A stretch of 21,415 nucleotides of DNA from a virus (taxonomy: Duplodnaviria; Heunggongvirae; Uroviricota; Caudoviricetes), in IMG/VR virus record IMGVR_UViG_2737471822_000004, positions 1-21,415 of that record; one strand, written 5' to 3'. Within the stretch, counting starts at the first letter, position 1; every line of letters begins with the position of its first letter. The position numbers were made by a program, and so were the translations under genes. The notes below the pieces were generated by a model. It was not told the DNA's origin. It made no database searches and saw only the letters and a program-made list of their open reading frames with translations. Shown here piece by piece: positions 1 through 15,598 of the stretch.

Positions 1-705
1 TTAATTGTCTCTGATGGTTTTGGAAAATAGATCGTTGACTTCAAAACCATACCTTACAACCAAGTCATATGCTCCAGATTCTATGTATGAGTTTTCAAAA
101 TCCTTTTTGCTGTTTTCTGTGTAACCTCCTATTCCTATTAAATAATCTTCCACCTCTTTTAATCTTGTCGATTTTTCTTTTCCAGTATTCAATAACTTGC
201 TATCGTCATCAAATTCTGCTTTATATTTTTCATGTAGTTTAGTTATAGAGGGGGATAAATTTTTAATTTTAAGAAGAATATTTTGTTGATCAGTGTCTCT
301 TAATTCCTTAATGTAAGGGTTGCTATAAAAAGTTTTTTCAAAGCAACTGGTTATATCTTTGTTTAAAAATGTTTTTAATTCCTTCATTCTTACATCATGT
401 GATTTTTTACTGTCATCTTCAGATGGTTGACGCATAAGTATTTCTGTTGGAGAACATTGGGAGATTGCATCAACAACATATTTTCTTGAATATTCCTTTC
501 TTAACTTTAAATATAGAGTTTTTTCTTTGTCTTGTAATTGTTTATATTCGATTTCTTTTTTTGCTATTGATTCCTGCAGATTTGCATTTTGGTATATCGG
601 AATTACTGTGTAAAATATTGTAAAGGTTGTCAAAAAAAACAATCCAACTTGGGCAATGTAACTTACTCTAATCAACCATAAATCAAATTTAGTATTAGTA
701 TTCAT
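1..705 (-). CDS. Hypothetical membrane-anchored coiled-coil protein, cargo gene B (234 aa), paralog of the upstream gene
   Basis: Complete ORF with stop at the window edge. N-terminal hydrophobic helix (IAQVGLFFLTTFTIFYTVIPIYQ) followed by a K/E-rich heptad-like region. N-terminal ~50 aa align with ORF 722..1570 (shared FYTV.PIYQ...E.IAKKE motif). Very AT-rich. No recognisable catalytic motif. Confidence 0.65.
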   Translation of the reverse strand: MNTNTKFDLWLIRVSYIAQVGLFFLTTFTIFYTVIPIYQNANLQESIAKKEIEYKQLQDKEKTLYLKLRKEYSRKYVVDAISQCSPTEILMRQPSEDDSKKSHDVRMKELKTFLNKDITSCFEKTFYSNPYIKELRDTDQQNILLKIKNLSPSITKLHEKYKAEFDDDSKLLNTGKEKSTRLKEVEDYLIGIGGYTENSKKDFENSYIESGAYDLVVRYGFEVNDLFSKTIRDN

Positions 706-721
706 TATAAGATATCCAATA

Positions 722-1570
722 TTAGTCTAAATGTTGAATGTCTTTTAAGAAATCCATGGCGCGGATTCTTGATTGACCATTTATCAGGAAAATATAAGAT
801 GATAGTTCTCTTTCTGCAGTGTTATTTTTCATTATTTCGTTTTCATTTTTGCGTAACTTAGTTGACTCTATAGTTTTTATCAGACTATTAATTTTTTCAT
901 CAAAACCGATAGGTTTTTTTGTTAATGAAATCTTATTTTTTTCAATAGCGCGACGGATCTTTGCTAGAATTTTGTTGCGGATATTTTCAGGGACATTTTC
1001 TGAACTTGAGATAAAGTTATGATTGCCATTTTTTAATGCTTCATTAATTGCATCATAAGGAGATATATATAAATTACTAGGAGTATTATAGGCTGTTTTG
1101 GCGTCACCCAGTGTATTGTTCACAAAATCTGTGCTCTTAGAAATATAAACTACTCCAACTAGCCCCGAAAAATTCTCCCAGAAAACAGATTCAAGATTCT
1201 TGTTGTTTGCATTGACCGCTCTTTTGGAAATGGTCTTTTGTTTATTTAGTTCATTTAAAGTTTTTCTTAGTTCAGAATTTATTGAATTTAATTTTTCTTC
1301 TGATTCTTTGTATTGTAAATCAAGTTTGGCAATGCTTCCCTCCAATTCTTTTCGTAAGATTTTATTATTCTCTATAAATTTTTGGGAGTTTTCCATTGCT
1401 GTTTTTAATTTATTTAATTCAACTTCTTTTTTTGCAATTTCTTCTGATAAAAGTTCCTTTTGGTAAATTGGTCTTACTGTATAAAAATATCCAAAAATAG
1501 CAAATGCCACCAATACAAACTGTGATACATGGCTAACTCGGCTCAAAAAAACATCAACTTTATTTGACAT
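722..1570 (-). CDS. Hypothetical membrane-anchored coiled-coil protein, cargo gene A (282 aa)
   Basis: N-terminal TM helix (FVLVAFAIFGYFYTVRPIYQ) then a long coiled-coil-like segment. Start aligns with the paralog start. GAGG 5 nt upstream of ATG. 16-nt spacing to the downstream gene suggests an operon. Confidence 0.65.
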   Translation of the reverse strand: MSNKVDVFLSRVSHVSQFVLVAFAIFGYFYTVRPIYQKELLSEEIAKKEVELNKLKTAMENSQKFIENNKILRKELEGSIAKLDLQYKESEEKLNSINSELRKTLNELNKQKTISKRAVNANNKNLESVFWENFSGLVGVVYISKSTDFVNNTLGDAKTAYNTPSNLYISPYDAINEALKNGNHNFISSSENVPENIRNKILAKIRRAIEKNKISLTKKPIGFDEKINSLIKTIESTKLRKNENEIMKNNTAERELSSYIFLINGQSRIRAMDFLKDIQHLD

Positions 1571-1604
1571 AACGCCTCTATAAGATTCTCTTTTTATCTA
1601 CAAC

Positions 1605-1610
1605 ATTATA
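1605..1610 (-). promoter_or_regulatory. Possible -10 hexamer (TATAAT on minus strand) for the cargo operon
   Basis: Perfect TATAAT about 35 nt upstream of the 282-aa start codon. The region is AT-rich, so a chance match is plausible. Confidence 0.25.
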
Positions 1611-2004
1611 ATTTTTTAATGAAAAAAATCATCTAAAAATTAGTTCAAAGCAATACGTTCAAACTGATATTGATGCTTAGGAGCTAATCGGTACGTATTG
1701 ATGGTACAACAGAAAAGAACAATAGAAAGCTTGGGGGCTGACGTTGCTACTGGCGCACATACCCATGTCGTACTAAAAGAGTTCATTTGATTTTATAACT
1801 ATATCAGCCCGTTATTTTTATGTTGATGCGAACAGCCCCGCACGCCTGCCCGCTTCGCTTAACAGACTGGTTTTCATGCACCTCATAAATCGTCTCAGAA
1901 GCCACCACACGAGGGCTTTCTCGTCAAAAATGGTGCATAAGGTTCATGCGTTTTCATGCGCTATAGACATGCACTCATGCGCTCTCAGGCCAGCCAGGGA
2001 AAAG

Positions 2005-2034
2005 GTGTTAAAAATCCCGGTACTCGACCGGGAT
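2005..2034 (-). terminator. Rho-independent terminator after the sid-psu-delta operon
   Basis: Perfect 8-bp stem ATCCCGGT / ACCGGGAT (2014-2021 and 2027-2034) with a 5-nt loop. On the minus strand it is followed by UUUUAACACC. Lies about 20 nt downstream of the delta stop. Confidence 0.7.
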
Positions 2035-2054
2035 TACGTGGGCGTTTTTTCTAA

Positions 2055-2336
2055 TCAGACAGGAATCTGCTGACGGCTTGACAGTTTTGACGCGGAGCCA
2101 TAGCGATTGAGCGTTTGCTGTTGTTTTACCGGGGGTTGTGATTTGTCTGGTTCCTGTTCATTGCGCCGGGGTTTCATGATTATCTTATCCACACTCTCCA
2201 GTGCCGTAAATGTGCAGGAACATTCCAGATTCTGGCACTGATACCACGAGCGTTTAACTGACGGAGCTTCATAGGCTGCTGTTCTGGCGTGTGCAACTGT
2301 ACCGCATTCCGGACATTTAAGTGCCATTAAAATCAC
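2055..2336 (-). CDS. delta: Ogr/Delta-family zinc-finger late transcription activator (93 aa)
   Basis: Translation carries the CPECG...HART...YQCQN.ECS zinc-finger pattern typical of P2 Ogr / P4 Delta. Start overlaps the psu stop by 4 nt. Confidence 0.85.
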   Translation of the reverse strand: MILMALKCPECGTVAHARTAAYEAPSVKRSWYQCQNLECSCTFTALESVDKIIMKPRRNEQEPDKSQPPVKQQQTLNRYGSASKLSSRQQIPV

Positions 2337-2884
2337 TCCTGTATATCGTTAATGTCATTCAGGCGTTGCTGAAAATGCAGATGTTGTGCCGGGGTGTAAG
2401 AGTCCTGGCAATCACGAATCATCCCGGGGTCAGGTATCAAACCGGATTCATCCAGGATCTCACGATAATCCCCGGCAATTTCAGGCGGTGTTATTGCCAG
2501 CTGGCGAACCAGAGCACTGCGTAATATACGGGACGCAACGTCAACCCCTCCGCGTCCCTTCAGGAACGGAGCCAGTGCAGATGTCAGGGCTGCCCCATTC
2601 GCCTGCATAAAATTGCTGAGAGCTGCTTCTGTGCAGGCCTCCATCAGTAAATGCTGCGAGTAAATGCATTCGCGCGCAGCACAGTTAATTTGCCATTTCA
2701 GCACATCCAGACGTTCCCGCAGTAATTCGAGCTGTCGGGCATAATCTGCTGGTTTTTCTGTGGCAGCAAGGAGAGATGCTATCTGTTGTTCAACGGCTTT
2801 TCGGCTCTCACTATGTCCGGCCCACAGAATACGGGCATTCCGAAAACTGGTAAGTGCCTGGTCAGGCGTGCCTCGGGCCGTCAT
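2333..2884 (-). CDS. psu: Psu-like polarity suppression / capsid decoration protein (183 aa)
   Basis: Size, all-helical composition and recalled P4 Psu motifs (LKWQIN.AA, FMQ..G.AL..ALAP, YTPAQ). Sits inside the late operon, coupled to sid and delta by 4-nt overlaps. Confidence 0.7.
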   Translation of the reverse strand: MTARGTPDQALTSFRNARILWAGHSESRKAVEQQIASLLAATEKPADYARQLELLRERLDVLKWQINCAARECIYSQHLLMEACTEAALSNFMQANGAALTSALAPFLKGRGGVDVASRILRSALVRQLAITPPEIAGDYREILDESGLIPDPGMIRDCQDSYTPAQHLHFQQRLNDINDIQE

Positions 2885-3624
2885 ACTGCTTTCTCCTTCT
2901 CAGCAAGTTCCTGACGAACCTTAATTTTATGCATAGCTGCCGGAGAGAGTTGATTACTGAAATCCAGACGCGCCGCATAATCCGGGGCAATTCCCGCCAG
3001 TTTAAACACCGGGTCCTGTTCAGGCATCGCATCGTTAGCCAGAGCCGGTCTGGTGATATGTTTATGAATAAAGTCTTTCAGCACTGTGTCCGGGTCATTA
3101 ACTGAATTCACCACACCCACAACGGCACTGGCTTCCCGGCCCATTGTGGATTTAAGCAGGCTCAGCGTCTGAATAAGCGCTTTTCCATGCGACTGCATAA
3201 AATCTTCCCAGATTTGTTTTGCACGAATATCCACAAGAATATTATGCGCGTGGATATACTTTCCGGCTAATTCTGCAGCTTTCTGCGGCAAAAGTGCATT
3301 TTCGCTTTCCTGAGCCGCCAGCAGCTCATCAAAATCCTCAAGCGTTTCTCGTCCCAGCGCAATTTCCGTGCGCAGTTTTTTCATTTCCTTTGAGACCACG
3401 CCCTGACTTTCACGAAACAGCGTGCGCCACTCCTCATTCAGTGTGTTCGTCGTGGCTTCCATTTCAGCGCGACGCTGGCGGATTGTCGCAATATTATCCG
3501 CTGCCGCTTTCTGCTGACGACGTGCTTCAAGCCATGCGTTTCTGGCTGTGTTCATGGTTTCCAGTGCCCGCTGCGTTACAGCCGGAAAAGTGGAAAGGTT
3601 GTTATTCACTGCGGTGTTGTTCAT
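2881..3624 (-). CDS. sid: Sid-like external scaffold / capsid size determination protein (247 aa)
   Basis: First gene of the late operon, immediately downstream of tandem TGT-N12-ACA dyads. Size close to P4 Sid, helical Ala/Glu-rich sequence. AGGAG 6 nt upstream of ATG. Confidence 0.65.
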   Translation of the reverse strand: MNNTAVNNNLSTFPAVTQRALETMNTARNAWLEARRQQKAAADNIATIRQRRAEMEATTNTLNEEWRTLFRESQGVVSKEMKKLRTEIALGRETLEDFDELLAAQESENALLPQKAAELAGKYIHAHNILVDIRAKQIWEDFMQSHGKALIQTLSLLKSTMGREASAVVGVVNSVNDPDTVLKDFIHKHITRPALANDAMPEQDPVFKLAGIAPDYAARLDFSNQLSPAAMHKIKVRQELAEKEKAV

Positions 3625-3658
3625 GACTTCTCCTGTCGGGTTGGTTCGTTACGTCAAT

Positions 3659-3714
3659 TGTGTCGTGGCTGACACAAGCACACTATCGGTGATCAGTGTG
3701 TGGTGGCTGGCACA
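3659..3714 (-). promoter_or_regulatory. Late promoter region with two TGT-N12-ACA dyads (Ogr/Delta-type activator binding sites)
   Basis: TGTgtcgtggctgacACA at 3659-3676 and TGTgtggtggctggcACA at 3697-3714, centres 38 bp apart, about 45 and 80 nt upstream of the sid ATG. Confidence 0.6.
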
Positions 3715-3802
3715 ACGGGCGCTTGCGGTTATTCAGACGTGGCTATGAAAGCCAGCCAGATAAAAATGCCCTCTGTTTCAGTCTGCTTTATGTCCCTGAT
3801 GC

Positions 3803-3991
3803 GGTGGAACAGGTGAAACATGTGTTACTGCTTTGTTTTATAAAGTATTTATATACACTGCACCGGTGGAACATCGCGGGTAACAAGGTGGAACAGCGGA
3901 TTGGCTGGCGTTACATCTGTTCCACCTCACTATTTCAGAAGGTGAAACAGGTTCAGCCCTTGTAAAATACGGTTGTTCCACCTGTTTCACC
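3803..3991. repeat. Iteron cluster: 8 copies of 9-mer GGTG(G/A)AACA in both orientations, candidate alpha-binding origin/crr
   Basis: Copies at 3803, 3812, 3866, 3887, 3941 (forward) and 3919, 3974, 3983 (inverted, TGTT(C/T)CACC). Outer pairs form an 18-bp inverted repeat. Located between the alpha stop and the sid promoter. Confidence 0.7.
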
Positions 3992-4025
3992 TGTTACCCT
4001 TAATAAATAAGACTCACGCAAAGCC

Positions 4026-6698
4026 TTAACCCGGCACCTCGCTGTTGAAGACATAGAGCCTGCGGGGATTCATCTCTGGCGGGCGAATGGTTGTCTGGAG
4101 TTTGCCATCAGTGGAGGGCAGCAGGTATCCACGATCTGCGCACAGACGCGCCACCTTGCGCGGGTCAAATCCCCTGCAGATTTCTTTCCAGCCGGACGGC
4201 ATGACATAGAACGTAGTGACAGCTTCCGTGCCCTGCGCGGTACTGCCTTTCTCCACCCTTCGCCAGCCCACCATATTGCCGGGGCGGTTGCGCTCGTCAT
4301 ACCAGTCTGCAAAGCGGCTGTACTGATTCGCGGTAAAGAAACTGCGAACCTGCTCCAGTGCGGCGATATCTTCCTGATTGGCGGTGTGCCCGCGATCTTT
4401 CAGCCATGCGTTCAGGCAGACGCGGGTTGCCCGCAGTGCTTCACCCTCAGGCCAGCCGGTGATACCCAGACGGGTTGCCAGTTCACCTGCCATCGCCACC
4501 AGTGCAAAGCGGTTCACAGCCCGGCCCACTTGATTGCCTGCATCTTTCGGAGTCAGGGCGGCAGCATATTCCTTCATCAGCGATTTTGCCTGTGCCGTTA
4601 GTCCGTTAAGATCAGCGGTCAGTGCTTTCAGCCACTCCCGGAACGGCGAACCGTAGTAGCAGGACGTGGCCCATTCAAGATGCTCTGCCAGAGCCTTGCC
4701 GCTGTCGAAGCCGTGCAGCTCCTCAAAAACGCCAAACTTCCCGGAATCGCTGGGGATCTGGATCATCCTGACTTCCATCCCGGCAAAAGTACGCTCACCG
4801 GCCTTTGCCGCATGTTCGGTCAGAGACAACTCGCCAGTTGAAAAGAACAACAGGCGCCACTGCTTACGGGTACGCAGCTCACCGTCCGTACCGGCACGGC
4901 CCTTGCCTTGACCGTTTGCCAGCATGTAGGCGATATTGCCTGCCTCGCGTCCGTCAACTTCCCGGATCTCATCAAGCATCATGGCGGCATCGTTGCGGCG
5001 GCTGGCGCATCCCTCCAGCGCGTTGCCGGTGGCCCGCCATGTCTGCCAGTAGTCAGGCCCGCCGCAGACGGAGGTTGCTGCTTTCATGGTGGTGGTCTTA
5101 CCGTCTGTCGATTCCCCTTTGAGGTGGTAGCCGCCGCCGTCCATACCAACCAGCCGTAACAGTGGTGCAGCAAAGGCCAGGCTGACAGCAAATGCCACGC
5201 GGGAGTTGCCGGTACAGTAGCGGGATACATGCTCCCGCCATTCCTCTGTTGTGCCCGACACGCGGAAATCACGCCCCTGCACGGAAGTGGTCTGGAGAAT
5301 GACACCCTCTGCACCTTCACCGCTGACCTCATCCTGCAGGACGTAAACCTGACCATGCCAGCCAGTACGACTGACGCAGGTCACGCGGCGTTCCGGTTTA
5401 CACAGTGAGATATATTCCATCAGGCGTGCGCGTGCCTCACCGGTGGTGCTGATATAAGACAGCCCGTTAACCAGCAGTACCCGGCGCAGTTCCTCACCAC
5501 TGCCGCTCAGCATTTCCATCGGCATCGCCCAGCGGCGACACTCACCCCACGTATCTTCCCATTCCAGCAGTCGTCCGAAGTTACCGCCATCGGCATCGCA
5601 GGTGATTGCCGTCACGCGCAGCGGGCTGCATATTTTGACGTTCTGGATCTCCGTCTCACCGTTGCGCTGTACCTGCTTTTCATACCAGAGATATTCCTGG
5701 GTAAGACGGAACCCGTGCGGCAGTTGCGTGCGGCTTTCCCCGCACAGTACCAGACCGTTGCGAAAGGCTTCACGGGCACGGGTAATACCGTGCTCCCGAT
5801 GAAAGTCATTCCAGTCAGCCTTAATCTCTCCTGGTGGCAGCGTCATCCAGCCGCCAACAGCTTTTGCCGCCCGTTCAGCAAAGGCTCTGCCGGGATTCTC
5901 ACCCCCGTCCTGAAAATCGTTATCACCGGCGATGATAATTTTTACCTCAGGCCAGCGTGCCCGCAGCGACTGCGCCACATTGGGCAGGTTGCCCGCAGAT
6001 ATGGCAGCCACTACGCATCCGGCAGTGAGCTGGCTTACCGTCAGCGCCGTAGCGTAACCTTCGGTAATCACCACCTGTATCGGTGGTTCAGACGGTAACG
6101 GGCTGAGCGACACAAACGCGCCTTTCATCGTGCTGCCGGGCAGTATGCTTTTTTCACCCGTCGGGGCGATAAGCTGTGCACCGGTCACGGCTCCGGTGTT
6201 GGTCGTGAGTGGTAACAGCAGGGAACCGGCAGGAAAATCCTTACCGCTGATATGCTGTACGCTTCCGGTCAGAGAGGCCGGGTATCCGGCGAACCCTTTT
6301 CCTGTCAGATAGGCGCTTTCTCCCGTGTGGCTCTCTTTCATCAGCGCCGCCACGGTAAGACCCATGTCGCGTTTAGGGGCTTTTTGTCTGGCAGGCTTAA
6401 CAGGCAGTTCCTGCATATCCGGCACATTAAGCACCTGCGCCACCTCCTGCGCAGCCTTTCTGACGCTGTAACCGGTTACGAGCTTAACCAGATCCAGACC
6501 GTCACCATTGCCACACTGGCTGCAGATCCACGTCCCGCGCCCGTCAAGGTCATCAAGGCGAAAACGATCCTTGCCCCCACATTTCGGGCAGGGACCGTGC
6601 CTGCCGTTTTCAGGTACATCAATACGCAGCATCTGCAGAATAACGGGCCATTTCCCCCGTGCGGCGGCTGAAACCTGCGTAACCGTCTGTATTGTCAT
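4026..6698 (-). CDS. alpha: Alpha-type primase-helicase (890 aa)
   Basis: N-terminal zinc-binding CPKCGG...CSQCG, TOPRIM-like EGYATAL / AGDND acidic motifs, C-terminal Walker A GESTDGKTT. Start overlaps the upstream ORF stop (ATGA). Confidence 0.9.
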   Translation of the reverse strand: MTIQTVTQVSAAARGKWPVILQMLRIDVPENGRHGPCPKCGGKDRFRLDDLDGRGTWICSQCGNGDGLDLVKLVTGYSVRKAAQEVAQVLNVPDMQELPVKPARQKAPKRDMGLTVAALMKESHTGESAYLTGKGFAGYPASLTGSVQHISGKDFPAGSLLLPLTTNTGAVTGAQLIAPTGEKSILPGSTMKGAFVSLSPLPSEPPIQVVITEGYATALTVSQLTAGCVVAAISAGNLPNVAQSLRARWPEVKIIIAGDNDFQDGGENPGRAFAERAAKAVGGWMTLPPGEIKADWNDFHREHGITRAREAFRNGLVLCGESRTQLPHGFRLTQEYLWYEKQVQRNGETEIQNVKICSPLRVTAITCDADGGNFGRLLEWEDTWGECRRWAMPMEMLSGSGEELRRVLLVNGLSYISTTGEARARLMEYISLCKPERRVTCVSRTGWHGQVYVLQDEVSGEGAEGVILQTTSVQGRDFRVSGTTEEWREHVSRYCTGNSRVAFAVSLAFAAPLLRLVGMDGGGYHLKGESTDGKTTTMKAATSVCGGPDYWQTWRATGNALEGCASRRNDAAMMLDEIREVDGREAGNIAYMLANGQGKGRAGTDGELRTRKQWRLLFFSTGELSLTEHAAKAGERTFAGMEVRMIQIPSDSGKFGVFEELHGFDSGKALAEHLEWATSCYYGSPFREWLKALTADLNGLTAQAKSLMKEYAAALTPKDAGNQVGRAVNRFALVAMAGELATRLGITGWPEGEALRATRVCLNAWLKDRGHTANQEDIAALEQVRSFFTANQYSRFADWYDERNRPGNMVGWRRVEKGSTAQGTEAVTTFYVMPSGWKEICRGFDPRKVARLCADRGYLLPSTDGKLQTTIRPPEMNPRRLYVFNSEVPG

Positions 6699-7078
6699 AC
6701 TTCCCCCTCATACAACGTCACACCGGTACTGCAGAAGTCATCAAAGGCCGCCGGAAGCGTGCGGTACATCTCCGCCATCACTTCACAGCCGCGCGCGGTC
6801 AGTACCGGCGGCGCGGTCAGCAGTGACGGCTCCAGCATGTCAGTCAGCAGTGCCAGCGCGGCAGCGGCGCCCTGCACTTCGCCGTACTCGTTAATCAGTA
6901 CGCACTCGATATGCAGCGCAATGGCCATTTCAATACGCTCCACTGTCAGGCTGTGCGGACCATACTGATCACTGCCAGTTTCGTTCAGCATTTTCTGCCG
7001 CCATGCTGAAGCAATAGCCCGCCGGTAAAGCGCGGTGGTCATTTCTACCGGGAAAATGGAAACCTGCGGCTGGTTCAT
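6695..7078 (-). CDS. Hypothetical protein (127 aa), immediately upstream of alpha
   Basis: ORF with ATGA stop/start overlaps on both sides. Position is analogous to the small genes preceding alpha in P4 (orf151/epsilon region). No motif recognised. Confidence 0.55.
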   Translation of the reverse strand: MNQPQVSIFPVEMTTALYRRAIASAWRQKMLNETGSDQYGPHSLTVERIEMAIALHIECVLINEYGEVQGAAAALALLTDMLEPSLLTAPPVLTARGCEVMAEMYRTLPAAFDDFCSTGVTLYEGEV

Positions 7079-7359
7079 CTGGCACCTCCTTCAATCAGTG
7101 CGCAGCTGTGTGCAATATCCGTCAAATCTGCCAGCAGGTACTCCATCAGCGCGGCGACACCAGGCGCACAGCCTGCGTCCAGTGCTCCGGCCTGAGACGG
7201 GTATTCAGAAAAGAGAAGCTGGAGCATGTCGCAGGCATTTCTTGCGCGGGTCAGCTTTCCGAAACTGTCCTCTGACAACCCATAGGCAAAAGCACCGGTA
7301 TTGTGTTTTTCAGGCAAAGTGTGGCCCTGAGCACCGTTGAGCCCGTTTGAAATATTCAT
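7075..7359 (-). CDS. Hypothetical protein (94 aa)
   Basis: GGAG 10 nt upstream of ATG. Stop overlaps the next start. Epsilon-like by position and size only. Confidence 0.5.
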   Translation of the reverse strand: MNISNGLNGAQGHTLPEKHNTGAFAYGLSEDSFGKLTRARNACDMLQLLFSEYPSQAGALDAGCAPGVAALMEYLLADLTDIAHSCALIEGGAR

Positions 7360-7390
7360 CGTGAATTACTCCGTTTTCAGCGGTATTTTG

Positions 7391-7750
7391 TCAGAGAAAC
7401 TTTGAATAGTGACCGTCGTCAGGCTCAGCAGAACGCCGTATGGTACGCTCCCGCCAGCGGATAAATAGCACAGACGGATGCAGTGTCAGCGGGCCGGAAC
7501 CACTACTGCCTGCAGGAGCTGGTGCAGGCTTAAAGAGCGGTACATCAAACAGGCGCGTATACCGCTGTTCAAACCATGCCAGAGGGCAGGAAGAAAGCTG
7601 GTTGTCGCTGTCATGACGTATCAGCACTTCACAGCTGAATTCAGGATTAACCAGCGCCACAGAGGGCGAGGCTTCTATTAATCGGATAATCGTGACCGTC
7701 CAGCCACGTTCATGCTGCCAGCGTTCGCCGGGGTGCGGATAATTACGCAT
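7391..7750 (-). CDS. Hypothetical protein (119 aa from the RBS-supported ATG; the ORF extends to 7780)
   Basis: GGAGGTG 5 nt upstream of the ATG at 7750. Overlaps the end of the upstream small ORF by 8 nt. Confidence 0.5.
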   Translation of the reverse strand: MRNYPHPGERWQHERGWTVTIIRLIEASPSVALVNPEFSCEVLIRHDSDNQLSSCPLAWFEQRYTRLFDVPLFKPAPAPAGSSGSGPLTLHPSVLFIRWRERTIRRSAEPDDGHYSKFL

Positions 7751-7919
7751 GTTCACCTCCGCAGGGAATGCGCCCGGCAAAGCTCAGTACATAGTCCGGG
7801 GCAAGTCTGCGCCGCGCTGATCGTTCGTTATCTGCGGTGATCCTTAACATCACAGGACGGGCATTGCGTTGACTGCGGTTGATCGCCGCAAATAACCAGG
7901 TACACTTCTGTTTAGCCAT
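7743..7919 (-). CDS. Hypothetical small protein (58 aa), first gene of the replication operon
   Basis: GAGGT 8 nt upstream of the ATG at 7919. The longer 76-aa ORF lacks an RBS at its first ATG. Confidence 0.4.
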   Translation of the reverse strand: MAKQKCTWLFAAINRSQRNARPVMLRITADNERSARRRLAPDYVLSFAGRIPCGGEHA

Positions 7920-8003
7920 CTTCGTTACCTCATATAACGTGCTGGTCAGACGCCTCGGTGCTGCTGCAAACACTCCGGGGCGTTGCTATTTTGTTTTTCT
8001 GTG

Positions 8004-8047
8004 TGTAATGTGTCATTACACATAAATACATTACAATGGGTGTAATT
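8004..8047. promoter_or_regulatory. Divergent promoter/operator region with GTAATG-type palindromes
   Basis: TGTAATG-tgt-CATTACA perfect palindrome at 8004-8020, further CATTACA (8029-8035) and TGTAATT (8041-8047) half-sites overlapping the start of the plus-strand regulator gene. Confidence 0.45.
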
Positions 8048-8230
8048 GACGTGTCAACACACAAAAATGAAAGACGTGGGAATCCGCCATTCCAGTTCCG
8101 ACTTGACCCTGAACTGCGTGAACTGATGGAACAAGCACAACAGCAGGATGGCGATGAATCGCTAGCGGCTTGGATCAAGCGCATTCTACGCAAAGAGTTA
8201 CAAAGCCGAGGTTTAGAACCAAAGAATTGA
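8036..8230 (+). CDS. Small ribbon-helix-helix-like transcriptional regulator (64 aa), the only plus-strand gene in the satellite
   Basis: PFQFRLDPELRELMEQ... fits the beta-strand then helix pattern of Arc/CopG/ParD-type RHH proteins. Divergent from the replication operon. No clear SD at the first ATG; the GTG at 8051 is an alternative start. Confidence 0.5.
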   Translation: MGVIDVSTHKNERRGNPPFQFRLDPELRELMEQAQQQDGDESLAAWIKRILRKELQSRGLEPKN

Positions 8231-8240
8231 TTAATACGTT

Positions 8241-8263
8241 GGGGAGGCTTTTTTCTCCCCAGC
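8241..8263. terminator. Hairpin between the converging RHH gene and alpA (possible bidirectional terminator)
   Basis: GGGGAG / CTCCCC stem with a T-rich loop. No strong U-tract on either side, so function is uncertain. Confidence 0.3.
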
Positions 8264-8279
8264 TTTGTTAATATTGTCA

Positions 8280-8495
8280 TTACACTACTTCCTCCAATCC
8301 TGCTGATTGAGCTTTAACCCACTGCCTAATTTCTTGTGCATCGTAAACAGATACCCGTTTTGAAATGCGTATAGATTTGGGAAATTCAGGATTGTTCTTT
8401 TCCCAGCGCCAGAGAGTAACCGTACTTATTTGCAAAAAGTCAGCAGTAGCTCGTGGGCGGGCATGTCCAGTGATAGGATAAGTTTTTAATGTCAT
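8280..8495 (-). CDS. alpA: AlpA-family HTH regulator (71 aa)
   Basis: FLQISTVTLWRWEKNNPEFPKSIRISKRVSVYDAQEIRQWV matches the AlpA/Xis-type winged-helix pattern. Typical position between the integrase and the primase operon. Confidence 0.8.
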   Translation of the reverse strand: MTLKTYPITGHARPRATADFLQISTVTLWRWEKNNPEFPKSIRISKRVSVYDAQEIRQWVKAQSAGLEEVV

Positions 8496-8503
8496 GAAAT
8501 TAC

Positions 8504-8531
8504 CTGCCGTATTATGTAATGAACACGGCAG
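8504..8531 (-). promoter_or_regulatory. Stem-loop in the alpA 5' leader
   Basis: 7-bp stem CTGCCGT / ACGGCAG with a 14-nt loop that contains a GTAATG motif, ending 8 nt upstream of the alpA ATG. Confidence 0.3.
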
Positions 8532-8773
8532 ATACTATGGGGATATCAAAATGCTGTGAAGGTAGTGTAATCAACTCTACCTGTAGATTGTTTCAGTCTA
8601 CCCCTTTTGTTTTAATCCCGCATGATTAACCGCTAATCGTAATTTTCTTAAGATTTCTTGTTCATTAGTGATAAATATTGGAGGTAGCTCTCCTAAATGT
8701 TTAATTATGGCGTTAGTCCACTTTTCAGGACTTATCTCTTTTCTTTCACCACGACATTCGCTTGGGTATTTTG

Positions 8774-9481
8774 CTAATATATATATATGGCTGCATTTAA
8801 TAACCCCTCCCTATTTTTTGCATGATGCTCAGCAGTGTTATTTAATCGCTTGGGGATTTTAGGTTCAGATGAAATTCTTTTCGTAAGTAAACTTGGCATA
8901 GGAATTCCAGTTTTTACTGATTTCCATATTAACTCTAAATCTCTTCGCATGATAAGAAGATCTTCAAATGGAATCTCAATGACCTTATTTCCTTCATATG
9001 AGGCCGTTGCCATCAAAACATTATCTCGTATTTTTACCGGTTTAAGCCTGAATTCATAATCTGGATCTATAGCTAATCCATTTTTTATGTCACTTATCAT
9101 ATCATCGGCGTACCAAATACCACAGGCAAATCCTATAATTTGAAGCCCATTTTCAAAATGTTCAAAGGAATCATCTTTAAGGTCATACCATATTGTTGAA
9201 AATTCCATCTCTAGTGATTGATTAGTTAATACGGGATGAATTAAGTCAATTTCCATTTTCTGATTTTTATTGAGGAAATTAACATTAAATCTAACTGCAA
9301 GTCCATCCGCCTTGAATGCGATATTAAAAGCGCCTATTTCGTATAGATGTAATAAATCATCAATCTCGCATTCTAATAGTCTTGAAGCGCGTTCAAATGA
9401 ACAATATTCTAATGGTGGTATTTTTTTGTCAATCCATAGATTTCCTAAGAATATAGTTTCATTCTCTGTTGAATGCTGCAT
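8774..9481 (-). CDS. Hypothetical protein (235 aa), AT-rich cargo gene between integrase and alpA
   Basis: Long ORF with GAGG 7 nt upstream of ATG, 30 nt downstream of the integrase stop. Lower GC than neighbours. No motif recognised. Confidence 0.6.
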   Translation of the reverse strand: MQHSTENETIFLGNLWIDKKIPPLEYCSFERASRLLECEIDDLLHLYEIGAFNIAFKADGLAVRFNVNFLNKNQKMEIDLIHPVLTNQSLEMEFSTIWYDLKDDSFEHFENGLQIIGFACGIWYADDMISDIKNGLAIDPDYEFRLKPVKIRDNVLMATASYEGNKVIEIPFEDLLIMRRDLELIWKSVKTGIPMPSLLTKRISSEPKIPKRLNNTAEHHAKNREGLLNAAIYIY

Positions 9482-9511
9482 TATGACCTCTGTTTTAAAT
9501 TATAAGAGTAT

Positions 9512-10846
9512 TTAATTGATAATGTTAATACCTGATAAGTCATAAGGAGCATGGAATTCGTCCTTATTTAGTTCCAGATAATTAGACCACCATTGCATCA
9601 TTCTGCGGCGTTCCTGCATGTGCTGCGCAAGATGCACATATGCTGCCCGCACTTCGTTTCTTTCTTGGTGACTCATCTGCCGTTCAACTGCATCGCGTGA
9701 CCAGAGTCCTGATTCGGTCAGTGCAGAGCAGGCCATCGCCCTGAACCCATGCAAGCAAACATCAGTTTGAGTGTCGTAACCCATCGTTCGCAGTGCTTTA
9801 TTAACTGTGTTTTCGCTCATCGGTTTATATGGGTTGCTGTCACCGGGAAAAACCAGCAGATATTCACCACTGATTTTCCTTATATCCTCCAGTACCCCGA
9901 TAGCCTGACTAGATAGCGGGACATAATGAGCAGCCCCCATCTTTGCACCCCGATCTGAGAATTTAACCCCTGCGATCTCTTCACGTTGTCCTGGTATCGT
10001 CCATAGCCCATTTTCAATGTCGATCTCCTCCCATCTGGCATGTCGTAGTTCGCTGGATCGCACAAAAGTGTGCAGGGAAAAGAGAACTGCTAGGCGAGTC
10101 AATGGTCTTCCCGTGTAACTTCTCGTTTTCGCTAACAGTTCAGGTAAACGTTCGAGAGGTAGTGCGGGGCGATGTCGTACTTTGGGGGCCGTAATTGCAC
10201 CTTTTAGATCGTGGGCAGGGTTGTAATCGACAATTCCACGTTGCACGGCATAACGGAAGATGCTCGTCATAGTGGTTTTTACACGGCTCGTTGTGGCACC
10301 AATTCCTTTCTCAGTCATCTCAACCAGCATCGGCATCAAGTCACGGGTTTTGAGCGTATCGATAGGCTTTGAACCGATGGCAGGAAAGAGGTGGTTTTCC
10401 ATTTCTCGGAGAATTTTTTTACGGGTGATCTCTTTCCACTCAGGATGCCCCATCGTTCCACTATGCCACTCTCTGGCAACACTCTCGAACGTGGGGGAAA
10501 TTGGGTCTTCCTTTTTGGGTTTCTTTGCTTCGCGAGGATCACGACCATCGGCTAGTAGTTGCCTGGCTTCATCACGCCGTTTCCGCGCTGTTGCAAGTGA
10601 GACATCTGGGTAGACCCCTAATGCTAATGTCACTTGTTTTCCATCAAAACGATAATTCATACGCCAGTATTTTCCACCAGTCTTTCGTACCAGTAGATAC
10701 AAACTCCCTCCATCGGTAAGTTTGTAATCATTGGTCTTCGGCTTGGCGTTTTCTATCTGTTTGGGGGAAAGCACATTAATGGCCATATCTGTACTCATTT
10801 TGGTAAATTGATGGTATCTGCATATCGAACTGGGGAATACCATCAC
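9512..10846 (-). CDS. Tyrosine recombinase, P4-family integrase (int1); probable true start at 10786 or 10798
   Basis: N-terminal arm-binding domain (KLTDGGSLYLLVRKTGGKYWRMNYRF...VTLALGVYPDVSLATARKRRDEAR) and C-terminal catalytic region (HGFRA...RAAYVH...RRRMMQWW). The canonical N-terminus begins at MAINVLSPK. Confidence 0.9.
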   Translation of the reverse strand: MMVFPSSICRYHQFTKMSTDMAINVLSPKQIENAKPKTNDYKLTDGGSLYLLVRKTGGKYWRMNYRFDGKQVTLALGVYPDVSLATARKRRDEARQLLADGRDPREAKKPKKEDPISPTFESVAREWHSGTMGHPEWKEITRKKILREMENHLFPAIGSKPIDTLKTRDLMPMLVEMTEKGIGATTSRVKTTMTSIFRYAVQRGIVDYNPAHDLKGAITAPKVRHRPALPLERLPELLAKTRSYTGRPLTRLAVLFSLHTFVRSSELRHARWEEIDIENGLWTIPGQREEIAGVKFSDRGAKMGAAHYVPLSSQAIGVLEDIRKISGEYLLVFPGDSNPYKPMSENTVNKALRTMGYDTQTDVCLHGFRAMACSALTESGLWSRDAVERQMSHQERNEVRAAYVHLAQHMQERRRMMQWWSNYLELNKDEFHAPYDLSGINIIN

Positions 10847-11057
10847 TTATACCATCACGAGGTTGTAATGTCATGAAATTAACTGAAATGAAAATCAGGC
10901 CGATTCGGTGATAACTTACTGTTTTTTTAAGTGGTTATGTAATGAAGTGAAATGTAGAGAAAGGTCTTTAAAGTGTCCCTGCAGACATCTACTTGAGGCG
11001 GCAGGGGGTTGATTAGAATGGTGTTTTTTAGATTTGAGAAATATTTTACCCGCTATT
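10847..11057. other. Inter-element junction: candidate att site region, duplicated alpA start segment, and direct repeats
   Basis: Contains a second copy of the 16-mer TAATGTCATGAAATTA that overlaps the alpA start codon (10866-10881 versus 8487-8502), a tRNA 3'-end-like GTGTCCCTGCAG (10963-10974), and a TATTTTACCC direct repeat at 11042-11063. Confidence 0.35.
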
Positions 11058-11258
11058 TTACCCATTCGCGCGGCTTAAGAGCTTATTTTTGAATTCACAA
11101 TGGTCACGATATAACCATCTTGCTCGTCCGTGGATAACTTTGGCTTTAGGCAGGTCGCCGGACTTAATCCGGTCATAGATGAAGGTTTTACCAAAGCCAG
11201 TATCAGCCATGATGAATTTCAAATCAACCAGTGAATCAGGTTGTAGTTCGTGTTGCAT
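11058..11258 (-). CDS. torI: TorI-like excisionase / recombination directionality factor (66 aa, AlpA/Xis-type winged helix)
   Basis: 66-aa protein MQHELQPDSLVDLKFIMADTGFGKTFIYDRIKSGDLPKAKVIHGRARW... with an HTH_17-like pattern. I recall this as the E. coli KplE1 TorI sequence. GGAGA upstream of ATG. Lies at the prophage end opposite the IntS-like integrase. Confidence 0.65.
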   Translation of the reverse strand: MQHELQPDSLVDLKFIMADTGFGKTFIYDRIKSGDLPKAKVIHGRARWLYRDHCEFKNKLLSRANG

Positions 11259-11300
11259 GAGTGCTATCTCCGAATAGGGAATCGAACCTGCAAATCAGGC

Positions 11301-11323
11301 AATAAAAAACCGCATTGATGCGG
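11301..11323 (-). terminator. Rho-independent terminator at the end of the early operon
   Basis: Minus-strand hairpin CCGCA-ucaa-UGCGG followed by UUUUUUAUU, between the 114-aa gene and the torI-like gene. Confidence 0.6.
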
Positions 11324-11382
11324 CAATGGTAGGTCTGGATATCTTGAGAAATGAACGGGCCTCATCGAGTGTGAGGCTGTGG

Positions 11383-11727
11383 TTAGTCCTTGCGTAACTC
11401 GCTAATTCTTCTGTAAGTCTCTGGTGCTTTGTTTCCGTGTATCTTCATTTCAGACTTCAACAGAGCAACGAGAGAATCCCATTCGTTGAGGATGCCTTTG
11501 AATGCCGGAACGCGCTTTGCAACCTTGTCGAATGAATCCCTGATTTCTGGAATCTGCTCGACAAGCGCAACGCATCGCCGGAAGTCGGCTACGTCATGTG
11601 GAGCGCCGAAGTGATGACCATAGATATTCTTTTTCAGTCCACATGCGATTGAGGCAAGAGTTGCGCTACTGATGCCAACATCGCCAGTCGATTGCCATTT
11701 CAAAACCTTCATAGCCAAATCTGACAT
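11383..11727 (-). CDS. Hypothetical prophage protein (114 aa)
   Basis: ORF co-oriented with the early operon. No motif recognised. Confidence 0.5.
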   Translation of the reverse strand: MSDLAMKVLKWQSTGDVGISSATLASIACGLKKNIYGHHFGAPHDVADFRRCVALVEQIPEIRDSFDKVAKRVPAFKGILNEWDSLVALLKSEMKIHGNKAPETYRRISELRKD

Positions 11728-11799
11728 TTCTTGTCTCCATAAAACAAAACTCGCCGTAGCGAGTTCAGATAAAAGAAATCCCCGCGAGTGCGAGGATTG

Positions 11800-12084
11800 T
11801 TATTCATTGCCGATATTCACCTTTATCGCGAACACCTTTACCGGTTTATCGCCGAAGTGCGGATGTGTGATTGTCTTGATTTCATATCCGTCATACGGGA
11901 CGTCAATTCTGCGGCTGGAATCGTCGCGCTTCGGATATCCCTTTGTGATAATCAGGCGGTCATGCTTACGGTTAACGAGGCGCTTTTTCCAGTAGTCATT
12001 ACACAAGCGATACTCTTCCGTTTTCTCCCCGCGAATCATGGCATCGAAGTATTCACCTTTGACGGCAAGTTGCAGGTTAGCCAT
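11800..12084 (-). CDS. ASCH/DUF3850-like small protein (94 aa from the ATG at 12084)
   Basis: MANLQLAVKGEYFDAMIRGEKTEEYR resembles the N-terminal pattern of ASCH/DUF3850 proteins. GGAGGTG 7 nt upstream. TAATG stop/start overlap with the upstream gene. Confidence 0.55.
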   Translation of the reverse strand: MANLQLAVKGEYFDAMIRGEKTEEYRLCNDYWKKRLVNRKHDRLIITKGYPKRDDSSRRIDVPYDGYEIKTITHPHFGDKPVKVFAIKVNIGNE

Positions 12085-12344
12085 TACCGCACCTCCAGTT
12101 TCCATACCGCCTGACCAATCCGGCTGGCATAGGTATCTTTGGATACTGCTCCGTCTTTAGCCAGCTCCATAAGAATTTTGCGCAAATCTGCCGAACGCCA
12201 TTCTTCATCAGGAAATTCCTTCTCCATTGCCAACCGCAGATTCCAGGTTGCTATCGTGAATGGATATTCCCCGCCGAGAGCTTTCTCTTGCAGGGCAGAA
12301 CGGGAACGCATCACCTGCAAAACCTTCTCTTTTACATCCATCAT
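12084..12344 (-). CDS. Hypothetical prophage protein (86 aa)
   Basis: ORF translationally coupled to both neighbours (4-nt overlap with the DUF551 gene, 1-nt overlap with the ASCH-like gene). Confidence 0.5.
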   Translation of the reverse strand: MMDVKEKVLQVMRSRSALQEKALGGEYPFTIATWNLRLAMEKEFPDEEWRSADLRKILMELAKDGAVSKDTYASRIGQAVWKLEVR

Positions 12345-13342
12345 TTTGCCTCCTGCGGCGGTTCTGGTAGTGGCATCCAGTGTGTGACATTGCTAATCAG
12401 ACCATATTCATTAGTTTGAGGATGGTTGCCGTTATCGTCTCCGTATTTAAGACTCTCCATAAAACCATAATGCTTATTCCCATTAACGCTCACAAAGCCG
12501 TAATAAGCAGGTATAACGCCGATCTCACACGTAACCAGCAAAGGAAAACCAGTTCTCCAGTTTAGTTCACCGATTTCAGGCATTCGATCACTACAGCTTA
12601 TCCAACTATCCGGAGTTACCGGAGAGTTGCCCGATAGCGCGTTCTGCAGTCGCTCCAGCTTCACGTATTCCTGAACCCTGTTTCCGTCGCATGCCTGAAG
12701 CCATTGCGCAGCCTTTTGCGCATCAGTGTGAAAGGCACAAGTGCGACCGTCATCAAATTGCATTTCGTAGAGGTCAGCAACTTGTTCAAACTGCGTGTGT
12801 TGTGACTTGTAAGTTTGGCTTACAGGTTCGGCTTCCAGTTCTGCTATGCGCTTCTCTGTGGATTCCAGCGCTGCAACCAATTCGTCTACAGTTCCGGCAG
12901 CTTGCAGTGCGTAATCGGTAATAGCCATCTCATGATCAATTTCAGTACCGTTCTCATTCGTTGAGGTGATAGCAAAATAATCAGAGTCGATTTCGTTATC
13001 AGCTAAGTGGCGTAGCGTATCGGCAACAAGCTGGCCGTTTTCGATTAGCAGCCTCCCAACCGTAAGCGCAATATCCTCGTTCTCCTGGTCGCGGCGTTTT
13101 ATGTATTGCTGGTTTCTTTCCCGTTCATCCAGCAGCGCCAGCACGGTTTCTGGTCCGGTCAGAAATTTGAAGGCGTTGAGCGCATCAATATCCACACCGT
13201 AATCTTTAAGTTCCTGTTCACTTAACAAATCATCATCAGCTGGCAACATTAACAGGCGTTCCATTGCTGGAATTGCACGTTCCGCCGCCTCACGCAGTGC
13301 CTGGTAATTAATTTCGCTCACTGGTTGCCTCCTTTGCGCCAC
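12341..13342 (-). CDS. DUF551-domain phage protein (333 aa), Ea22-like early-region protein
   Basis: C-terminal [10 protein letters not shown]...LLVTCE...YYGF...[12 protein letters not shown] matches the DUF551 pattern common in lambdoid early-left operons. Acidic N-terminal region. Confidence 0.65.
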
Positions 13343-13501
13343 ATCGCATTCAGATATTTGTTTTGATTCACTGATGGAAAAGAATTTCTCTTAAGCAATT
13401 CCTCTCTCGATGGCATTGGCTTTACGCGTTGGCGAATAATCATTTCCGCCGGAAGAATTCCGGGATTGTATGCAAGTCCTCTCATGGTAAATTCCTCTTT
13501 G

Positions 13502-13816
13502 TTAATTTATTCGTATGCCTGTTCTCTCTTCATCGAGTTTTTTTAGCTTGTATCGCATAGCTCTTACTGAATAAATTGAGCGGCAGGTTGCAATTGCTAT
13601 TTCTTCTGCGGAGAACTTACCGAAAAGTGATACTTCGGCTCTTGTCCATCGTCTTCCACGAAGTCGGCTAACAATGTCAGCGCCAATCCTTGTTGCTTTC
13701 GCCATTACTGCTTTTTCAGTCCTTTCCAGTTTTTCAGCGATAACTTCAACTGGCATTGTCGCCGCCACTTCGCGCAAGAAATCGACTTCCCATTTCTCCC
13801 ATGGAGTCTTTTTCAT
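13502..13816 (-). CDS. Hypothetical prophage protein (104 aa)
   Basis: ORF in operon context. Basic C-terminus. No firm family. Confidence 0.45.
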
Positions 13817-13827
13817 AGGCGATACCG

Positions 13828-14316
13828 TTATTTGATAAGAAGTGAAGGTTTCCCAACTTTGAGTTGAGCGCCGGGGATATTTATTCCTGCTTTTAGTTGG
13901 TGCTTGATTGCCAACTTGTCGGCTTTAATTGTCGTTTCGAACTCAACGTATTCAGGAGGAAGGGCGCTTGAGTCGATGATTTCTACAATTTCTGACGGTT
14001 TGCGGATTGTTACCTGGTGAATACCTGCTCGAATATTTTTCTTGCCAACCATTTCAAGCGATGACGCTATATATGATTTGATGCTGTCAATCTTATTTTG
14101 AATTACTGCGGCTCGCTCATTCAGTGACTTTGCCTCTTCCTTGAGGCGTTCAGCATAAGCAGATTCATTTTTAATGACGGAAAGAAGTTGCTCTATTTTA
14201 TCGGTAAATTCTCCTTCCATGCCTTCTATTGTGTCAGCAATCATCTCTGGTTCTAAATCTGAATCCATCAATTTTGCGTATTCATTGGCAATTTCATACA
14301 GTTTGCTCACTGGCAA
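13828..14316 (-). CDS. Sipho_Gp157-like protein (162 aa), frequent partner of RecT/Erf recombinases
   Basis: Coiled-coil N-terminus and C-terminal ...IKADKLAIKHQLKAGINIPGAQL... pattern. Start overlaps the 3' end of recT. Confidence 0.5.
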   Translation of the reverse strand: MPVSKLYEIANEYAKLMDSDLEPEMIADTIEGMEGEFTDKIEQLLSVIKNESAYAERLKEEAKSLNERAAVIQNKIDSIKSYIASSLEMVGKKNIRAGIHQVTIRKPSEIVEIIDSSALPPEYVEFETTIKADKLAIKHQLKAGINIPGAQLKVGKPSLLIK

Positions 14317-15205
14317 CCTCCAGTTTCGCTTTGCATTCTATGTAAATGGCTTGTACGTTCTGCTGTAATTTCATTCCAGATGTCAGGCGATATGCTTCTG
14401 CAAAATATCGCTTCAAATCATCCATGTTTTCTGCCTGAGCCATTTCATCGCAAAGAAGTTGTACTTTATCCATTATTTCCTGCTGGCGTTTCCGTTCATC
14501 TTCGCGGATATCTTCCTCTGATTTGTGCGGCATAACTGGTTCAGTCCACACACCTTCTTCTTCGTTTAGTACGTGAATAGCACTATCAAGACGTGATGCC
14601 TTAGGCCAATACTTGCTTGCACGCTTTACGACCGTCTTTCGCGCCATCTCATTCCAGTGATTTACCCATGGTCCTTTATCGCTGAATGCCGCCTTGCTTG
14701 TTTTCCTTACAGCCTCAATTTCAGCCAGACTCATCTCTTCCGTTAGATAATCACCTGCTGGCGTCTTAACTGTGCAGTAAACGCCAACGATATCACCGCG
14801 ATCACCGAAGGCGTTGTATTTATGGGTTGGTGCTTTATCAAGCCCGTTTGACTCATAGGTATCGTTAGCATGAACAAGTTTTGCCTGACCCCATGAGATA
14901 ACACCAGACTCCATTGCAATATGGAGCAACCCCATATAACTGATATCAAGGCACACCATGCCGTCGCGCGGAACCAGATAAGCCAGTTTGCTAGCCGGGT
15001 TTAAGGTGATGCCGATCGCCGCAACATTGATGATGGCGTTCTGTGCGCTGGTTGGATTTGCCAGTGCCGTTTTAGCCAGGTAATCGTTTTTCTGGAAATA
15101 CTGAATTGCAAACTGGCTTTCCTTAGCCCATGTCACCGTCTGTTCAGTCAATGCTCCGCAGAATAACTGCTCCTGCTGTTTAACGAATTCAACGATATTG
15201 CTCAT
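14294..15205 (-). CDS. recT: RecT-family single-strand annealing recombinase (303 aa)
   Basis: GPWVNHWNEMARKTVVKRASKYWP matches the conserved RecT motif (Rac RecT: GPWVTHWEEMAKKTAIRRLFKYLP). Family-level call. Confidence 0.8.
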   Translation of the reverse strand: MSNIVEFVKQQEQLFCGALTEQTVTWAKESQFAIQYFQKNDYLAKTALANPTSAQNAIINVAAIGITLNPASKLAYLVPRDGMVCLDISYMGLLHIAMESGVISWGQAKLVHANDTYESNGLDKAPTHKYNAFGDRGDIVGVYCTVKTPAGDYLTEEMSLAEIEAVRKTSKAAFSDKGPWVNHWNEMARKTVVKRASKYWPKASRLDSAIHVLNEEEGVWTEPVMPHKSEEDIREDERKRQQEIMDKVQLLCDEMAQAENMDDLKRYFAEAYRLTSGMKLQQNVQAIYIECKAKLEVASEQTV

Positions 15206-15513: not shown

Positions 15514-15598
15514 CTTTCTCCTGTTCTTTGTGCTGATTGAGCATTTTGTTCATCTGACGAATGAATTCTTCGTCTGACCAGTTATCCGTAAAACTCAT
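15491..15598 (-). CDS. Possible small ORF (35 aa, acidic C-terminus)
   Basis: Below the ORF-track cutoff. Its ATG overlaps the stop of the upstream 56-aa ORF (ATGA) and its 3' end overlaps the 103-aa start. Supported only by coupling geometry. Confidence 0.25.
   Translation of the reverse strand: MSFTDNWSDEEFIRQMNKMLNQHKEQEKDDDSDSE

Follow-up and report, generated by a model that had tools for sequence, protein, structure and literature searches.

A probable cos packaging region of variant geometry at the cargo boundary of a P4-like satellite

Does a short G-rich motif lying between the late operon and the AT-rich end of a phage satellite belong to a cos site, and could the satellite still be packaged from it? 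We have approached this question for a stretch of viral DNA of 21,415 nucleotides (hereafter the window; all positions are counted from its first letter). According to our analysis, positions 1826-1980 of the minus strand probably represent cos, the packaging region, of a P4-like satellite of 11.6 kb that is integrated at argW. This cos is a variant, non-canonical one, in which neither the 19-nt cohesive segment nor the distal heptamer typical for the family is found.

The assignment to P4-like satellites follows from the gene set, from a match to an element in E. coli PD4 and from the P4-like size of that att-bounded element. The PD4 element and window 1-10984 are 99.95% identical, a divergence of at most 0.05%. 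It measures 11,615 bp (P4 has 11,624 bp) and is flanked by a 16-nt att repeat at a tRNA-Arg locus near dsdC; the far att end of the satellite is absent from the window, and it is through PD4 that the size of about 11-12 kb, which suits the small capsid, and the att repeats at a tRNA, both typical for P4-like elements, can be ascribed to it. The late operon runs on the minus strand and begins with a sid-like gene (2881-3624, 247 aa), which has a weak match to the Psu family in Pfam (E=2e-9) and is annotated in the PD4 genome as a polarity suppression protein. It continues with psu (2333-2884, 183 aa; PF07455, E=8.9e-45) and ends with delta (2055-2336, 93 aa; PF04606, E=7.5e-16), which has a single Ogr/Delta zinc finger and is the last gene before cos. 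Upstream of these three genes lie a primase gene with Zn-ribbon, Toprim and DUF927 domains (4026-6698), a DUF5375 gene, alpA (E=1.6e-7) and a tyrosine integrase gene. The reading frames of the sid-like gene, psu, delta, primase, alpA and int are full-length in the window, and with them (the sid-like gene by its weak Psu-family match) the core set of P4-like satellites is present except for epsilon, which was not identified among the P4-like core genes of the window.

A few observations on the surroundings of these genes should be mentioned. Compared with the PD4 element the window has a 2-nt insertion (AT) at 8777-8778, which truncates an accessory gene between alpA and int (235 aa, as against 293 aa in PD4). 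At the integrase side the att core is cut short near 10975 (GTGTCCCTGCAG) and unrelated DNA follows, the window having no tRNA. A second element follows within 10975-21415, with lambdoid early genes (Ead/Ea22 with DUF551, Gp157, RecT), an AT3-SGNH acyltransferase gene at 18148-20103 and a second integrase gene at 20258-21415, and the two elements together look like a tandem arrangement at the tRNA-Arg locus that holds the satellite in PD4. Behind delta, on the minus strand, there is a terminator-like hairpin (2008-2035; AAUCCCGGU-cgagu-ACCGGGAUU and then UUU) with a 9-bp stem, -14 kcal/mol and z=-2.4 in RNA folding; a scan with a strict terminator consensus did not call it, and no Rfam family was found in window 1400-4100. 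A 65-aa open reading frame of the plus strand (1876-2073), which runs opposite to cos and the delta terminator and overlaps both, has no Pfam match and is probably spurious.

In the non-coding DNA beyond delta the earlier note had pointed to a minus-strand 14-mer resembling the cohesive ends of P2, 186 and P4 but lacking one base and diverging in its 3' half. This 14-mer, GGCGTGCGGGGCTG, is indeed present as the reverse complement of window 1833-1846, one base off the 1832-1845 given for it; alignment proves the description of its likeness accurate, and, as had been noticed, the site has the late operon on one side and the AT-rich cargo on the other, the delta stop being 208 bp upstream of it. 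By itself the 14-mer is not beyond chance. The sequence GGCGWGGCGGGG is expected 1.6 times per shuffled window at up to 2 mismatches and, because of the indel, it fails at this tolerance to match at 1833-1846; the canonical cos (GGCGWGGCGGGGAAAGCAY, up to 3 mismatches) occurs nowhere in the window. Since the 14-mer alone is statistically unremarkable, and blastn with a 781-bp query (E<=1e-5) drew no match from the phage collection, it might be argued that we deal with an accidental G-rich resemblance unrelated to cos. However, the junction pattern GCGGGCRGGCGWG has one exact match in the window, at 1841-1853 of the minus strand, where 0.04 would be expected. Furthermore, an nhmmer profile built from eight P2-family cos cores (P2, P4, 186, RE-2010, three Klebsiella Peduoviridae and 500465-1) gives a single significant match, from 1883 to 1836 of the minus strand (26.5 bits, E=1.4e-7; profile positions 1-44 of 61), the runner-up in the window having E=6. 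These matches, together with a collinear homology that extends over about 175 nt of Peduoviridae cos regions and the syntenic position, effectively refute an accident, the probability of which we regard as negligible.

The same profile, run on the complete 11.6-kb PD4 element, finds the same single match, and 1883-1836 of the minus strand is the sole cos-like site of the window and of the PD4 element. A 78-nt query made from the subfamily consensus retrieved, at a relaxed E-value, Peduoviridae cos regions with E down to 4e-4, namely those of RE-2010, of Klebsiella P2-like phages, of one Yersinia phage and of E. coli 500465-1. As the profile match is unique both in the window and in the whole PD4 element, the two findings that, in the view of the earlier note, could have spoken against a cos, namely no significant alignment to any P2-family cos region and a better cos elsewhere in the full element, can be set aside: the alignment is significant (E=1.4e-7, with collinear homology to the Fels-2 type in addition), and the search brought no better site. 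The interpretation as a packaging site is thus supported in the sense of a cos homologue that is the only one in the element, its function being predicted from sequence.

Cos sites of the P2 family have, as the work of Ziermann & Calendar (1990) is quoted in PMC9122126, PMC2231350 and PMC5694545, a 55-bp core and 19-nt 5' cohesive ends; as references we used the joined genome ends of P4, P2 and 186. The aligned homology of our locus to such a cos region extends over some 155-175 nt and includes a cluster of four direct repeats GCATG(A/T) on the minus strand, at 1975-1980, 1967-1972, 1954-1959 and 1944-1949 (cluster 1944-1980). The window holds 15 GCATGA sites, four of which fall within 107 bp and on one strand. 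Clusters at the corresponding place, some 70 nt ahead of the core, are also found in P2, P4, 186, RE-2010 and 500465-1, and within the satellite subfamily the columns of the cluster are conserved at 0.92-0.96. Comparison of the phages suggests that such an upstream cluster would be a defining feature of cos, and it may represent the terminase-binding (cosB-like) part of the packaging signal.

The core begins with the 12-mer TGCATGAAAACC (1869-1880, minus strand), which is the same in Fels-2-type Peduoviridae. It is followed by a 22-nt arm, AGTCTGTTAAGCGAAGCGGGCA (1847-1868, minus strand), which contains a tandem AAGCG-AAGCG at 1851-1860 and ends in the top-strand nick context GCGGGCA. The pattern GCGGGCR^GGCGWG (the caret standing for a nick) occurs exactly and uniquely at 1841-1853 of the minus strand, here as GCGGGCA^GGCG, and by homology the top-strand nick is predicted between 1847 and 1846. 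Next comes the homologue of the cohesive-end segment, GGCGTGCGGGGCTG (1833-1846, minus strand), which, aligned to the ends of P2, P4 and 186, has 14 nt in place of 19 (GGCGWGGCGGGG plus 7 nt); the opposite-strand nick, if it is guided by the heptamer, would by the same homology fall between 1833 and 1832. The position of the distal heptamer (1826-1832, minus strand) is occupied by TTCGCAT, where P2-family cos sites have YGCGCGC. In full, the minus strand of the window reads TGCATGAAAACC AGTCTGTTAAGCGAAGCGGGCA^GGCGTGCGGGGCTG^TTCGCAT, and the cos of P2 reads TGCATTAAAACC GCCCCGTGAAGCGGGCG^GGCGAGGCGGGGAAAGCAC^TGCGCGC. As a single strand the core has no significant fold (z=0.3). Abutting it is a sigma-70-like promoter (1798-1826, minus strand; TCAACA-17-TATAGT with a TG extension), a pattern match from a consensus scan only, which is directed into the cargo genes.

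It would be natural to take such deviations for decay, as the earlier note did when it called the site possibly degenerate. From IMG/VR, Shigella and E. coli we brought together 35 distinct cos sequences of the satellite subfamily; a profile search of genome contigs with Psu contributed one locus, from Shigella. The 22-nt arm with the tandem AAGCG-AAGCG is present in 35 of the 35, and the 14-nt segment in all of them except one (L021), where there is a deletion. The consensus of the segment is GGCG[G/T]G[C/G]GGG[G/C][C/A][T/A]G, and on its 3' side most have a heptamer of the CGCGCGC kind (exact in 11 of 35), with TRAGGGG beyond it in agreement with the P2 flank TGCGCGCTGACGG. The canonical arm has 17 nt and the canonical segment 19 nt; the 19-nt segment stands at every site of 120 canonical-arm loci from IMG/VR, as it does in the 117 distinct canonical sites compared, and as 11 of the 120 loci carry satellite genes, satellites with canonical cos sites of the P2, 186 and Fels-2 types exist too. 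Relative to the canonical arrangement, in the subfamily the block AAGCGGGCA^GGCGTGCGGGG is moved by 5 bp, and 4-5 nt are missing from the 3' half. The spacing from 12-mer to heptamer is nevertheless 36 nt in both, 17+19 in P2, P4, 186 and the Fels-2 type and 22+14 in the subfamily, because the 5-nt AAGCG duplication offsets the shortening from 19 to 14 nt, and MAFFT aligns the two sorts of cores without gaps. The window has this 36-nt spacing as well, the heptamer position itself being filled by unrelated sequence. The missing base and the short 3' half are thus common to a whole satellite subfamily and are not a private decay: the earlier suspicion described what is seen correctly, misjudged its origin and overlooked the loss of the heptamer.

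The non-coding stretch 1833-1985 shows a majority fraction of 0.86-1.00 when 38 distinct loci are compared, at least as high as that of the delta coding sequence, although this estimate is partly biased, some of the loci having been retrieved with patterns from the conserved arm; past 1832 the column conservation goes down to 0.5-0.7. When phages were scanned for the 14-nt variant (GGGCRGGCGNGCGGGGCTG), the matches were confined to satellites and unrelated GC-rich DNA, and none was to a helper cos. When the full text of the literature was searched with the variant sequences, no paper on the satellite 14-mer came up, the lone match being an unrelated cytomegalovirus paper. One relative, L015/L067 (IMG/VR UViG_647000237_000010), is changed at both sides of the arm, AGTCTG to TGCCTG and GCGGGCA to GCAGGCA, and these changes together create a perfect 6-bp inverted repeat, TGCCTG...CAGGCA, around the AAGCG duplication, resembling CCGCCC...GGGCGG of P2. 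Two IMG/VR contigs contain two canonical cos cores each in the same orientation, at 350-382 and 10969-11001 (L117, 10.6 kb apart) and at 2546-2578 and 9793-9825 (L155, 7.2 kb apart); these could be tandem satellites or assemblies exceeding one genome unit.

As opposed to the features common to the subfamily, the heptamer appears from the alignment to be a private defect of this copy, eroded or replaced. TTCGCAT differs from YGCGCGC by 3 mismatches, which is worse than in any of the 117 distinct canonical sites, where 104 heptamers are exact, 11 have one mismatch, 2 have two (the maximum) and none has three or five. Among the 35 distinct subfamily sites 11 are exact, 13 have one mismatch, 8 two, 2 three and 1 five, and the difference in exact heptamers (11/35 vs 104/117) is highly significant (Fisher p=8e-11). 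This relaxed conservation could mean that many copies are decaying. On the opposite strand the heptamer, read as GCGCGCR^, mirrors the GCGGGCR^ that precedes the top-strand nick, and because of this mirroring the heptamer is probably a second nick half-site, as far as one can judge from the sequences, so that its loss could impair maturation.

From here one may arrive at a view of the locus as a relic: a cos homologue that is no longer matured, having lost its distal nick-site heptamer when the present cargo joined, in what is now a fixed, non-mobilisable island whose backbone is conserved merely through youth. The three mismatches, when 115 of the 117 canonical sites have one at most, and the mirror symmetry with the second nick-recognition half-site that it suggests, would fit such a view, as would the rarity of this combination of cos and cargo (7 of 5426 genomes) and the 2-nt insertion that truncates the accessory gene in the window copy. 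Against it, the proximal arm, the GCATG cluster and all the core genes are intact, the divergence from PD4 does not exceed 0.05% and the size of P4 is retained. The heptamer, besides, varies widely in the subfamily, position 2 included, and the rest of the site is kept, and because it varies without loss of the remaining site it is perhaps not strictly required in the re-phased variant. A relic is thus a possibility which we take seriously but consider somewhat unlikely, and we favour, with reasonable though limited confidence, a cos site that is still in use, possibly inefficiently.

The site also marks the boundary between the backbone and the cargo to within a few bases. Of 5426 complete E. 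coli genomes, 846 have the subfamily backbone by megablast, and only 7 of the 846 carry the cargo of the window. In an evenly spaced sample of 60 E. coli records the edge of homology falls at window 1827-1835 in 59, in agreement with the hotspot boundary that had been supposed here, and in most IMG/VR relatives the homology breaks exactly at 1833; across the subfamily many different cargos stand beside the one conserved site. In the window the cargo is an AT-rich (28-30% GC) module of two minus-strand genes at 1-1570, one of 282 aa (722-1570) and one of 234 aa (1-705). Their proteins have no Pfam or PADLOC match and no recognisable defence domain, and the sole NCBIfam match is to an SMC model (E=1.6e-5, far below the curated cut-off); we consider the module a candidate for an uncharacterised defence system.

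The hotspots of P4 and P2 lie directly beside cos (Rousset et al. 2022, PMC9122126). Adjacency of cos and defence hotspot in P4-like satellites and P2-like phages, and the idea of cut ends seeding recombination, are already published (PMC9122126, PMC8628076, PMC13586616), Rousset et al. having proposed that recombination mediated by cos ends drives hotspot turnover (PMC9122126). One could suppose in this connection that the sequence owes its conservation chiefly to cargo exchange, as a recombination boundary or substrate, for instance through terminase-cut and filled-in ends, and not to packaging. In most relatives the homology goes no further than exactly 1833, where the cohesive segment is predicted to end, as this supposition and the model of Rousset et al. 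(PMC9122126) would have it, and the hotspots of helper phages likewise start directly past the heptamer. But such a model would still need terminase cleavage at the site, and for this reason such exchange would be an addition to packaging and no alternative to it; nor would a mere joint explain a conserved GCATG cluster 70-130 nt away. We find it very improbable that exchange is what the site is mainly kept for.

Returning to a cos still in use, we may outline how it would work. Its homology, its uniqueness, its conservation and its place at the boundary have direct support in the comparisons presented above, and from the same comparisons we infer the binding sites of the terminase, the nick positions, the identity of the helper and the present-day function. 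The terminase of a helper phage would bind the GCATG repeat cluster and the TGCATGAAAACC arm, introduce one nick into the minus strand, behind GCGGGCA at 1847/1846, and another into the opposite strand at a distance of some 14-19 nt; the circularised satellite would be packaged into a small capsid derived from the helper. The region presumably descends from a P2-family cos, closest to the Fels-2/Wadgaonvirus type, and in the core of the re-phased subfamily the AAGCG duplication would have shifted the nick-site block by 5 bp; the cohesive segment has 14 nt in place of 19, with the cargo hotspot beginning immediately distal to it. Cleavage of the second strand is perhaps less efficient in this copy, because the distal heptamer appears to have been replaced together with the cargo.

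We may even suggest, as a speculation that we ourselves consider rather unlikely, that the re-phased cos with its block shifted by half a helical turn, the relaxed heptamer and the 1833/1832 junction are together the footprint of a cargo capture. If it were true, the re-phased cos would produce ends of 14 nt or else a 19-nt end of another sequence (GGGCAGGCGTGCGGGGCTG), which in either case could not anneal to the ends of the helper, and the junction 1833/1832 would be foreign DNA joined to a terminase-cut, filled-in end. The cargo junction would then give direct support, at the level of sequence, to the model of hotspot turnover by recombination of cos ends.

The re-phased satellite subfamily is widespread in E. 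coli and Shigella, and the locus described here would fix the packaging site and the exact border of backbone and cargo for a satellite lineage found in about 16% of complete E. coli genomes. Extraction of hotspot cargo becomes straightforward, since everything distal to GGCGKGCGGGGCTG is cargo. That cos stands beside the P4 hotspot was already known; what is new, to a modest degree, is the altered geometry together with the relaxed half-site. As a natural variant of cos with a changed geometry (14 vs 19 nt, offset by the 5-nt duplication) and a relaxed distal half-site, it may serve as a test case for how P2-family terminases place their two nicks and for whether terminase-cut ends seed the exchange of defence genes. 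It also points to phages of the Fels-2 type, over those of the P2 or 186 type, as likely helpers. Candidate helpers are common, since 855 of the 5426 complete E. coli genomes have a cos region of the Fels-2 type. The count is nearly equal to that of the satellite subfamily (846) among the same 5426 genomes.

How does this cos compare with the systems already known? As in P4, it lies downstream of the satellite late operon and directly adjoins the variable hotspot, and as in P4, P2 and 186 its parts follow in the same order, a GCATG/TGCAT cluster, the 12-mer TGCATKAAAACC (at 1869-1880 of the minus strand in the window) and AAGCGGGCR^GGCGWG..CGGGG, with the same 36 nt from the 12-mer to the heptamer position. 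It differs from P2, P4 and 186 by a G in the 12-mer (TGCATGAAAACC) where they have T (TGCATTAAAACC), by an arm of 22 instead of 17 nt and a segment of 14 instead of 19 nt, and by continuing GGCGTG-CGGGG with CTG where they have AAAGCAC/T. The satellite has the gene order sid-psu-delta, with a single-finger delta, where P4 has sid-delta-psu, and, different from P4, its late operon is co-oriented with the primase gene. As in the defence hotspots of P4-like satellites (PMC9122126; Moura de Sousa & Rocha 2021, PMC8628076), AT-rich variable cargo abuts cos, and a backbone conserved across hundreds of E. coli genomes carries differing cargo; in this subfamily, however, the hotspot extends from cos to the far att end, the integrase gene standing at the opposite end beside tRNA-Arg, and in P4-like satellites it extends from cos/psu to int.

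The resemblance to the Fels-2 type is closer. Cos sites of this type, found in Felsduovirus RE-2010 and SEN8, Wadgaonvirus 500465-1 and Klebsiella phages of the genera Kapieceevirus, Gegevirus and Elveevirus, have the segment GGCGTGGCGGGG(A/C)TACGAG, in the layout TGCATGAAAACC plus 17 nt ending in AAGCGGGCA^GGCGTGGCGGGGATACGAG^CGCGCGC; in SEN8 the cos is annotated as GGCGTGGCGGGGATACGAG (PMC5427200). In 500465-1 (L074, NC_049342.1, about 1504-1557) the cohesive segment has 18 nt (GGCGTGCGGGGATACGAG), lacking one G as the satellite segment does, which may reflect either true variation or an error of sequencing; as a trait by which a helper might be recognised we rejected this deletion, as it is absent from five other E. 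coli prophages of the type. The Fels-2-type phages keep the 17-nt arm, the 19-nt segment and an almost invariant CGCGCGC, and it seems plausible that the satellite CTG arose from their CTACGAG subtype through a 4-nt deletion. Identical in the window and in these phages are the 12-mer TGCATGAAAACC and AAGCGGGCA^GGCGTG. They have in common a G within the 12-mer, an A directly ahead of the nick and a T as the fifth base of the cohesive segment. The GCATG cluster is near-identical too, with GTGCATGTCTATGC.GCATGA...CGCATGA and many invariant aligned columns; at 1944-1974 the window has GTGCATGTCTATAGCGCATGAAAACGCATGAAC and the phages have GTGCATGTCTATGCCGCATGAGATCGCATGATC. Judged by these alignments, the nearest relatives of the window cos are the Peduoviridae of the Fels-2/Wadgaonvirus type, and not P2 or 186.
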